Source: Candidatus Aenigmatarchaeota archaeon
GTDB lineage: Archaea > Aenigmatarchaeota > Aenigmatarchaeia > Aenigmatarchaeales > JACQIB01
Length of the DNA stretch: 30,047 nt
Reading direction: 5' to 3'
Assembly (NCBI GenBank): GCA_046760225.1
Contig: JBHIDR010000006.1
Location: 1-30,047 of the forward strand
This document shows positions 27,001 through 30,000 of the stretch, piece after piece; positions within the stretch are counted from its first letter, which is position 1, and each line of letters starts with the position of its first letter. Position numbers: made by a program.

Positions 27001-30000
27001 TTCTCCTGGCTTGAAACCCAGATCTTCCATAAGACCCATGCAAAATTCGAACTGGTTTTCGAACTCTTCATTTGCCTGCTTCAAATCCTTACATAGTGTA
27101 TGCATATCTGGCATTGTGAAGGCCCGAAGCCTTCTGAGTCCTGAAAGCTCACCGGGCTTTTCCAACCTAAAGGAATACCTTGTCAGTTCGTACATCTTCA
27201 GAGGAAGGTTCCTGTATGATATAGTCATTCCGTGCTTCATCAGGAACTGACCAAAGCATGCAGAGAAGCGCAAAAAGAACCTCTTCTTGAAGGACTCCAC
27301 AACATACTGGCGTGCTGGAAAGCGGTGCAGATAGCTCTTTAGTGCAGGATGCTCGTAGTCATACATTATCGGGGTCTCAACCTCCATTGCGCCGTATTTG
27401 ACTGTCTTCTGAGTGACCCATTCCTCAAGCAGCGACTTTATCAGCCTTCCCTTGGGAAAGAAGCGAAGGTTCCCTGGATCGCTGCCGCTCTCGTGGTCAA
27501 CAAGCTCGAGCGCCCGCATATATTTCACATGGGGAGGCATCTTTTCAGCTGCTCTCTTTTTTTCTGACTCATATGAATAGAACTTCTTGAGATTATCAAA
27601 GCCCTTGAAGTCAAACTCCTTTGCAGGGACAATCTTTCCGTCAGGCGCCATTATGAACCATTCAGACTTTATCTTTTCCTCGTCCTTCAGGGCACCGGAT
27701 ATCTCTTCTTCTGCCTTTGCAACACCTGGAATGCTTACGATTTCCCTGCTGAGCTCTGACAGAGGATGACCCTTGACAGATATGCTAAATGCCTTGTACC
27801 ATCCAAAGGGAGCATGTTCTACTTTGTAATTATCTTTCTTCAGAGCCTTCTCTATTCCAAAGAGAACCTTCATCGCTGCATCTGATGAAGAAGGCTCGTT
27901 TGTTAGATGGACATATGGATAGAGCACTATGTTCTTTGTCTTTACTTCTTCAGCTATCTTCTTTACTTCTTCAGCAGTGTTCTGTATTGTCAGAACAACA
28001 GCTGATTCGTCTCGCTTCTCAACTGCTGAGAAGACCACCAGGCACTCCTTGAAGGACAGCTTCTTCTTCTCTACCTTCTCTGCATCCTTTATGGCCTTCT
28101 TTTTTGGCTCTATCTCGAGCGAGTTGCTGTGCATGGTTATTATTTTCATATAAACACCTTGTTCACAGTGGAATATAAGTTTTATTCATATATTTTTCAA
28201 ATCAGTACTCTATTCTCCAGATATTCCACTGCCTGTTCTGGGTCACCATCTCCGTATTTCTTCACAAAGTCTTCTGGTACATACCATATCTGCTCTGCCC
28301 CAATCTCTGCAAATCCTTTCATCTTTTACACCTCCTTGATTTTTTGGAGCCCTGAGAGGGACTTGAACCCCCAGCCTGCTGCTTACAAGGCAGCTGCTCT
28401 GCCATTGAGCTATCAGGGCACAATAATTCGATAGCGCTAGGTCTTCCTCTACCATTTGAAATCTTGATAGGGACACCACACGAATTGCCTTTCAACCGCG
28501 CATATGCATATCGAGAGAATGACAGCTTCCTCAAATTTGGGCATCTTTCTAAAACAAGTTTTAAAAGCCTCTTGCTTACAAACTTCCTGAAGTGCACGCA
28601 AGAAACATCAGGTGAAAGTTTTGATATATCAGCATAGCTAGAAACAATTAGTCCGCTTATCACTCTGTCCGTAATTCACCTTTCACCTTCAACACCTATC
28701 TAACTATTTATTTGCAACCTTTTTAAAAGGGGCAGAAATGTCACAAAAATTAACCTTAAAAAAGTCTGTTGAACAAACTATACTCATAGCCCCGTGGTCT
28801 AGTGGCCAAGAATCCTTTGGAGGATTGGTAAGATGACAGGCTTTGGTGCGCTAAAGCTCTGAGCGAAAGCTGTGAGGATACCTGTTGACGGAGGAGGGCG
28901 TATAGTTAATCTATTGCCCGCCGATTTCGAATCCTCCCGGGGCTACCATTATGATTATGCCAGACTGGAACGTGATTGTGACAACGCAGAGAAGGGACAT
29001 AAGGGAGGCCTTCAAGCAGCTCAGGCCGCATGGAGAGTTCAAGCGCTCAGCATTCAGGGGGATACTAACAGGCAAGGTAGAGAACAAGGAGGAGTTCATG
29101 GACAGGATGAAGGAGGTCAAGTTCCCTGCTTTCTTCAGGATAATACCTATTGATGCTGTTTTTCTGTTCGAGCCGGACAAGCTTACTGATAGACTAAAGG
29201 AAATGATGCCAAAGTATGCAGAGAAGATACCAGAAGGGGAGAGCTGGGACATAGCTTTTGAGAGAAGAGGGCTGAAAGGAGCAATAAACAGCATGGAGAT
29301 AACAAATATCCTGAGGGAGCAGGTGAAAAACCTTACAAAGGGAAGGCTTGATTTTGAGAAGCCTGAGAACATAATAGTGATCGAGACACTGGGAAAGGAA
29401 TGCGGTGTTGGCTTCCTTTCAAAAGAGATGAAGGAGAAATATCATTTCGTGAGAGCAGACTGATAAAATTCATTATGGTTTTGGTAGTGGAGACAAGAGC
29501 AGCATGTCAATAGCAGGCAGCCTGATAGCGAGCATCCTGAAAAGCAGATTTATTTCACATTCGCCCATCATGCTTACGCATCTTGTTACTTCCTTATGCA
29601 ATGCCAGGTGCAAGACATGTGATTTATGGAAAAAATCATCTGGACATAAAAATGACATGTCCAAGGAAGATATCTTCAAAATGCTTGAAAAGGCAAGGAA
29701 AGCCGGGATGGGAGGCTATACAGCATGGGGAGGAGAACCTCTTTTGCGCAAGGACCTGCCTGAAATACTGCGGTTTGCAAAGAAAAACAAGCTGATCACA
29801 ACTGTAATCACGAACGGATTTTCATTAAAGGAGAGATGTGATGAGATTGCGCCTTTTACAGACTATCTGATTGTCTCCATTGACTCCAATGATGAGCTTC
29901 ATGACAAGATGCGCGGTGTCAAGGGAATCAGGAAAAGAGCAATTGACGGAATCATAGCGTGCAAGAAGACGAGAATGAAGACAGTAATCAACAGCGTGAT

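Follow-up and report, generated by a model that had tools for sequence, protein, structure and literature searches.

How is a protein made when its conserved domain lies two reading frames away from the start of its own leader? This question is raised by a DUF1699-like gene that precedes the threonyl-tRNA synthetase gene (thrS) in the window analysed here, i.e., the whole 30,047-nucleotide stretch of a contig from a Candidatus Aenigmatarchaeota archaeon. According to the survey's finding, a short leader is separated from the domain by two Shine-Dalgarno (SD)-slippery-threonine sites, at each of which the ribosome would have to shift by +1. The frames and both cassettes were located on the minus strand as described; each cassette consists of an SD, 4 nt, CGG and a Thr codon, and the two are 16 nt apart. 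The middle frame, given as 10 codons long, has 9 sense codons and a TAG, and so reaches that number when the stop is counted. The elements of the locus are the following:

28736-28744, minus strand: conserved promoter-side motif GTGACATTT, a candidate operator
28721-28728, minus strand: putative TATA-like box, picked by eye from the sequence
28692-28696, minus strand: initiation SD (SD0), SD-like GGTGT, 5 nt before the GTG at 28686
28660-28686, minus strand: leader ORF in frame A, with GTG at 28686, 8 codons and TGA at 28662-28660
28666-28680, minus strand: shift site 1, with SD GGTGA (28680-28676), 4 nt, P codon CGG (28671-28669) and A codon ACA for Thr (28668-28666)
28638-28667, minus strand: middle (+1) frame, 9 sense codons and TAG at 28640-28638
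28650-28664, minus strand: shift site 2, with SD-like AGTGA (28664-28660), 4 nt, P codon CGG (28655-28653) and A codon ACT for Thr (28652-28650)
28661-28663, minus strand: final-frame GTG overlapping the leader stop, a possible reinitiation or leak start
28319-28651, minus strand: final (+2) frame, with a DUF1699_N-like domain and GRP arm, without an HTH; TGA at 28321-28319
28345-28419, minus strand: tRNA-Thr(UGU), reader of ACA, within the 3′ part of the final frame (ARAGORN; Rfam 72.4 bits)
28197-28322, minus strand: 41-codon ORF whose ATG overlaps the final-frame stop (ATGA)
26281-28149, minus strand: thrS, archaeal-type threonyl-tRNA synthetase (Pfam tRNA-Thr_ED, tRNA-synt_2b, HGTP_anticodon)

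The final frame reads through the tRNA-Thr gene, and the product predicted after two shifts has 121 aa. No Pfam match was obtained for the 41-codon ORF that follows. The two sites and their frames recurred ungapped in contigs that one study had obtained from 3 further samples, which rules out an assembly error as the cause of the frame offset. An anti-SD that matches the SDs of the cassettes was found at the 16S end of this genome, in which CGG makes up 2% of the Arg codons. Of 59 cassette-like matches in the 851-kb genome, the only two that lie within 40 nt of each other are those of this locus; at one fixed spacing, about 0.002 such pairs would be expected by chance.

The gene had been presented as a Thr regulator. 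Its linkage to thrS stood, but the product is without the HTH of the full-length DUF1699 relatives, so that the label itself is weak. The match to DUF1699 (PF08004) is poor (E 0.006, 16.7 bits, under the curated cut-off of 33.4), and no PF08004 match was found in the protein's own genome. A PF28505 (DUF1699_N) assignment was available, precomputed, for the closest relative (P0001, 73% identical), and an Atlas score of 0.86 is to be taken as a lead. With the DUF1699/DUF1699_N family (PF08004, PF28505) the protein appears to share the N-terminal domain with its HFRKF-like motif and the GRP arm. Several distant DUF1699 members carry an HTH_7-type HTH after this arm, whereas the thrS-linked members stop 10-30 residues past it; correspondingly, Pfam gave no HTH match in the protein, and its predicted model is beta-alpha without an HTH. 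The fold was predicted with confidence (pLDDT 89), Foldseek returned no relatives at E 0.001, and the best VIA hit (an LRR protein, Z 5.2) is not a clear match.

A search of 371 Aenigmatarchaeota genomes with a 12-row profile gave 47 matches in 46 genomes. Three of them were excluded before counting, two at contig ends (L026, L055) and one masked (L044), which left 44 readable genome loci: 15 tandem, 25 single-site and 4 unshifted (L049-51 and L058, the last of which was omitted from the stop/start overlap count and from both trees). The tandem genome loci, 15 of the 40 that bear cassettes where the survey's finding had given 8 of 28, are this one, 12 of family f16 and one each of f23 and f29. 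A further 13 loci came from metagenomes, 3 of them tandem, 9 single and one (L150) with a pair of sites in the same frame; among the single-site loci, L155 is nearly identical to the genome locus L018. Hence, the statement that the other loci reach the domain through a single site held for most, but four have no shift, one has two intact same-frame sites and one has an Arg codon (AGA) in the A site. The two sites of a tandem locus are 16 nt apart in 17 cases and 19 nt apart in one, i.e., 3n+1 in 18 out of 18. The tandem loci occupy seven positions in the tree, with six changes of label, and the tandem loci L149 and L151 are sister to the single-site L018 and L155 (98/87); no ancestral state is claimed, because 24 of the 53 branches are open.

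When genome contigs were scanned for the tandem pattern, 10 of the 90 matches carried the domain, all of them among the loci found by the profile, and the other 80 were taken as chance; viral contigs gave 0 matches to this pattern. A phylum-wide scan with one mismatch allowed hit 14 of the 371 genomes, always at this gene, against 10 for the reversed control, with a pattern that had been built from these same loci. The element is about 35 nt long, and gene callers mis-start all genes of this kind.

The codons of the cassettes were then compared over 72 sites. The A site was ACN in 71 of them (64 ACA, 4 ACT, 2 ACC and 1 ACG) and AGA (Arg) in the remaining one, and the locus with this sole Arg site shows no thrS in the 1.75 kb downstream. 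The P codon had identical second and third letters (NXX) in 72 of 72 sites (CGG 24, CAA 23, GAA 13, AAA 11, CCC 1) and was always followed by A, so that a tRNA with U34, which is the presumed reader, would keep anticodon pairs 34 and 35 after a +1 slip. The internal SD was GGTGA in 54 sites, GGTGG in 11 and a one-off variant in 7. Genome sites had been chosen by eye from a scan for an SD plus A, and the metagenome scan was filtered on the ACN or NXX rule; since the latter used codon rules as filters, the genome set is the fairer codon test. Read in the protein frame, the site encodes different residues (Q, H, L, P, R or E), and therefore the constraint acts on the shifted frame.

Site 1 was CGG-ACA in each of the 15 tandem genome loci and of the 3 tandem metagenome loci. 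Within the 15 genome loci, 431 of 984 four-fold sites (44%) are identical, with synonymous sites near saturation, mean protein identity is 41%, and CGG accounts for 1 of the 86 Arg codons in the domains. The shift site is thus under purifying selection beyond that on the protein, in a set of kin loci that are not independent. The leader frame holds the best SD followed by 5 nt and an NTG at every one of the 15 tandem genome loci and at 21 of the 25 single ones. In 10 of these 25 single loci, from three or four lineages, a final-frame stop follows the GTG of the SD, so that no in-frame start can replace the shift and this type of site must shift. Where the frame offset has been lost, site 1 has decayed (L017, L019, L154 and L156) or site 2 has become ATA (L031), as judged by eye; L150 is the exception, with both sites intact in one frame after loss of the offset. 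Site 2 persists in a related contig that differs by 15 substitutions but no gap, and also in a relative observed as a loose end. In a relative from run X5 (one contig, depth 3.5), both sites are retained at unchanged spacing, with a Thr codon replaced by a synonym. Judged by these comparisons, the conserved element is genuine, and selection maintains the cassette as a site of shifting.

The best explanation for this locus, to which we assign a probability of roughly two in three, is a sensor of Thr shortage built from two serial SD-assisted +1 frameshifts. From the observed frames, their conservation and their context, we infer slippage, a response to Thr, gate behaviour and a target as follows. 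Ribosomes would initiate at the GTG at 28686. While CGG occupies the P site and the SD is paired 4 nt before it, slow arrival of Thr-tRNA at ACA would let the peptidyl-tRNA slip by +1 onto GGA, a move that would preserve anticodon pairs 34 and 35. Five codons on, a second +1 slip would take place at CGG-ACT, and ribosomes shifted twice would be the only ones to make the full protein and to arrive at the stop overlapped by the following start codon; with ample Thr-tRNA, ribosomes would terminate after 8 codons. The output would then be close to p1 x p2, with less leak and a steeper response, and the AND-gate sharpening that the survey had attributed to the tandem sites would be a matter of this arithmetic. 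The effect on thrS and tRNA-Thr would probably come from translational coupling and relief of polarity, and possibly from the protein acting at GTGACATTT.

As to the tRNA in the P site, among 121 genomes, 40 contain a tRNA-Arg D-arm pattern with anticodon UCG and 1 contains it with CCG, and therefore CGG is probably read by wobble with tRNA-Arg(UCG), which would favour slipping. In genome G049 there is no Arg(CCG) among 38 tRNA calls, yet several other expected tRNAs are absent there too. It speaks against easy slipping that re-pairing keeps just two of the three pairs at CGG, CAA and GAA. The 4-nt spacing of the SD is the modal initiation spacing in this genome (26 of 66 starts), unlike the 3 nt of RF2, and for this reason the SD may hold the paused ribosome rather than push it. 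No consensus fold that could act as a 3′ stimulatory structure was detected in 16 tandem leaders.

The claim that only the second +1 shift reaches the domain has to be softened, since two serial shifts are the best-supported route but the GTG is open here and an ATG is found in two relatives. Termination-reinitiation would make use of these starts: the leader would end at its TGA and translation would restart at the overlapping final-frame GTG (or ATG), in which case the shift sites would be relics, or site 1 would divert ribosomes from the restart and produce an inverted or band-shaped response. Such stop/start pairs couple translation in H. volcanii, and an SD is not strictly needed there, according to the part of PMC6728339 that deals with them. 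A GTG overlapping the leader stop and leading into an open frame is present here and in 12 of the 15 tandem genome loci, 14 of 15 have some NTG near the leader stop, the GTG of SD2 is followed by an open final frame in 15 of 15, and the in-frame ATG stands at about that place in two close relatives, P0001 and the X5 relative. As a general route, however, the survey's own candidate refuter fails. A stop stands two codons past the overlapping GTG in L149 and L151, where the next in-frame NTG is at profile codon 26 and 11, respectively; L013 has no overlapping GTG but a TTG 8 nt past the leader stop; and in L053 the leader stop is 15 codons away. These blocked cases are few, L149 and L151 being one lineage from one sample (89% identical) and both keeping upstream middle-frame GTGs. 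The overlapping GTG is moreover a by-product of the GGTGA motif, and at this locus 12 nt separate it from the closest GGTGA on its upstream side; none of 66 starts in this genome has that spacing. Reinitiation also leaves unexplained why the P and A codons are invariant at both sites when synonymous identity is 44%. An efficient restart would bypass the sensor when Thr is ample and would free both sites from selection, which we count against it. We therefore regard reinitiation as an unlikely main route, and some leak through the overlapping GTG may occur at this locus.

A single shift would suffice if translation began directly at the middle-frame GTG that lies within SD1 (28679) and shifted at site 2 only. 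Each of the 15 tandem genome loci, as well as L149, L151 and L161, does have an open middle-frame GTG or TTG upstream, and the position of site 2 is the site position of most single loci. These middle-frame starts are, however, poorly served by SDs, with scores of 0-3 on a scale of 5, where the start in the leader frame has 3-5, and the 3-nt SD spacing of the one at this locus occurs in 1 of 66 starts in this genome. Furthermore, the invariant CGG-ACA in the leader frame, and its decay after loss of the offset, would have no explanation, so that we consider this route quite improbable.

Both shifts could also be real but constitutive, and act as a throttle of fixed ratio in which ACN would owe its conservation to the first letter, A, which serves re-pairing. 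This A is required for U34 re-pairing in any case, and the locus with AGA fits such a throttle. Re-pairing has no need of the second letter, C, which is nevertheless kept in 71 of 72 sites; synonymous Thr codons swap among the sites, and downstream of the gene lie thrS, tRNA-Thr and aminoacyl-tRNA editing genes. With these facts against it, a throttle that takes no account of Thr is very unlikely.

Least credible of all is that the frame is restored by some other device, be it a single -1 shift, which final-frame stops between the sites bar in 3 of the 18 tandem loci (L047, L149 and L151), bypassing (rejected or weak; 17 of 18 loci lack a matched landing codon), polymerase slippage (likewise rejected or weak; only 2 of 53 loci have runs of at least 6 letters), or a bulge-helix-bulge (BHB) intron. 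For the last, a loose scan did give frame-restoring candidates in 5 of 18 tandem loci, this one included, and in 7 of 35 others, against 12% of shuffles, but they lie at unrelated places, the 16 tandem leaders share no consensus structure, and no BHB conserved at fixed junctions was found in the tandem loci; the candidate of this locus consists mostly of G-U pairs, and its excision would remove the conserved I-S strand.

A thrS match was found in 42 of 47 genome loci and in 12 of 13 metagenome loci; of the five genome loci without one, three stop short within 1.1 kb, and another shows a thrS start of bacterial appearance. In 24 of 46 loci the stop of the gene and the start of the next one, often thrS itself, overlap in an NTGA, against 51 of 565 (9%) by a crude count in this genome, and this excess points to translational coupling to the next gene. 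Control may thus act through coupling to thrS, and polarity through FttA, as treated in part of PMC12548453, is a further possibility. In this genome thrS lies two genes downstream and, as judged by eye, may have its own promoter. On the promoter side, GTGACATTT is matched at 9 of 9 positions in 22 of the 40 cassette-bearing genome loci and at 8 or more in 29 of the 40 and in 13 of 13 metagenome loci, as compared with 6 or fewer in the 4 unshifted loci; an AT-rich box follows about 8-10 nt past it in most relatives. The motif accompanies the shifted gene and is a possible site of autoregulation.

A wider reading, for which we would give even odds, is that SD-NXX-ACN is a modular cassette, an archaeal frameshift-based attenuator that would report Thr-tRNA shortage and control thrS, tuned by the number and spacing of its copies. 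It would exist as one copy, as two copies 3n+1 apart (AND) or as two copies 3n apart (OR; L150), and lineages would switch between these forms through gains and losses of single bases.

Several known systems share parts of this design. In the +1 shifts of yeast Ty1 and Ty3, a weakly paired P-site tRNA stands beside a slow A-site codon, as is proposed here; they differ from this locus in that they are eukaryotic, work without an SD, set the Gag-Pol ratio and use a single site. Bacterial RF2 (prfB), as described in a section of PMC5009743, has in common with the scheme proposed here a short zero-frame leader, an internal SD, a P-site slip with a first-position mismatch, a slow A site and a functional product in the new frame. 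In that same account, RF2 has a stop codon in the A site and its SD 3 nt from the shift site, whereas a sense Thr codon and 4 nt are found here, in an archaeon, with two sites in series and with the presumably sensed molecule made by the downstream gene. We did not class the locus as RF2-type because it departs from RF2 in two defining features, the A-site stop and the short SD spacing. Frameshifts in short upstream ORFs can also alter downstream expression, as with ermCL (telithromycin) and pheL (PMC5009743); the former is drug-responsive and the shift of the latter is described as incidental, and neither is presented, in the pages concerned, as carrying SD cassettes in series or as yielding a conserved trans-frame protein. 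Multiple shifts within one gene are on record for Euplotes, some mitochondria and retroviral double -1 shifts (PMC5009743), which are not described in that part of the text as amino-acid sensors or as leader shifts five codons apart. For archaea, programmed shifts are reported in fucA1 (-1), Mg chelatase (-1, predicted) and haloviral tail genes, with that of HSTV-2 likely +1 (PMC8211752, which describes fucA1, and PMC5009743), but a chromosomal SD-assisted +1 sensor is not described in the relevant portions of either paper. No description of this system was found in our literature search, which stopped short of supplements, and frameshift catalogues (e.g., Antonov 2013) could list the gene. 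Finally, hungry-codon frameshifting in starved E. coli is triggered by shortage of one aminoacyl-tRNA, as shifting would be here, and for it the 2016 review, in the passage on this subject, knew no case whose product has a specific use in starvation (PMC5009743). The site here differs from such cases in being conserved and paired with the cognate synthetase.

T-boxes are mainly bacterial. If the serial-shift sensor is real, it would be a chromosomal +1 sensor in archaea and one answer to how an aminoacyl-tRNA synthetase is controlled in some of them. Hungry-codon frameshifting would then have a natural use that has been selected, such as was missing from the 2016 review in the passage concerned (PMC5009743). 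The serial form would constitute a logic gate made by reading-frame arithmetic alone, of which single, AND and OR versions would exist in nature.

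A cassette, i.e., an SD, 4 nt, a P codon and an A codon (normally Thr ACN), is lacking in the unshifted relatives, L049-L051 (family f33) and L058, which carry an ATG in frame; in L058 the gene is shortened and is flanked by a free-standing ThrRS editing domain on one side and by the catalytic part on the other. The motif GTGACATTT co-occurs with the shifted gene, the DUF1699_N-like gene upstream of thrS that is apparently reached by +1 frameshifting. It was found in none of these 4 unshifted loci and, bar one weak variant, at none of 6 thrS loci distant from the shifted gene. 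Two sequence features were located in the window:

28736-28744, minus strand, GTGACATTT, adjoining a TATA-like box
28170-28200, minus strand, AT-rich, TATA-like stretch upstream of thrS, identified by eye

Judged from its sequence, the latter is a possible separate thrS promoter. In the relative loci L026 (365-1057), L031 (1852-2199), L038 and L048 (the last two assigned by eye), the gene downstream of the shifted one encodes either a HAD-family hydrolase or a YbaK-type aminoacyl-tRNA editing protein, and it precedes thrS wherever the contig extends that far. The downstream thrS itself is archaeal-type in some loci and apparently bacterial-type in others.

The cassettes vary among the relatives. 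In the metagenome locus L150 (2455-2500) a pair of cassettes, both intact, shares one frame at a spacing of 15 nt, so that, as read from the sequence, one shift at either site would suffice. The pair in L031 has this spacing and shared frame too, with the Thr codon of the second cassette replaced by ATA. In a single case, L045 (genome G151), where thrS is on the opposite strand about 4.5 kb off, the A site is Arg AGA, which may reflect decay or a switch of the sensed amino acid. At the following other genes of the contig, no frameshift cassette pair was detected:

1112-4117, 6855-8416, 21615-22997, 23881-24729 and 28951-29463, class I synthetase (Ile/Leu/Val type), tRNA-His with HisRS, CysRS and two THUMP proteins

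Many relatives carry a divergent tRNA-Gln upstream of the shifted gene. In the window, the following stretch was observed:

28788-28948, plus strand, tRNA-shaped, Gln-like stretch of 161 nt, not called by ARAGORN

Its extra segments are probably introns. With a tRNA-Arg D-arm pattern, the anticodon UCG was found in 40 of 121 genomes of the class and CCG in 1 (doubtful); tRNA-Arg(CCG) may be absent from the class.

A further tRNA gene lies inside the coding region:

28345-28419, minus strand, tRNA-Thr gene, traversed in frame by the final (+2) frame ahead of its stop

The final frame likewise contains a tRNA-Thr gene in L026 and in the metagenome locus L151 (GGU), and in L153 a tRNA-Thr remnant is present. 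Since tRNA processing would sever the coding region of the shifted gene, translation of the final frame and release of the tRNA-Thr may compete.
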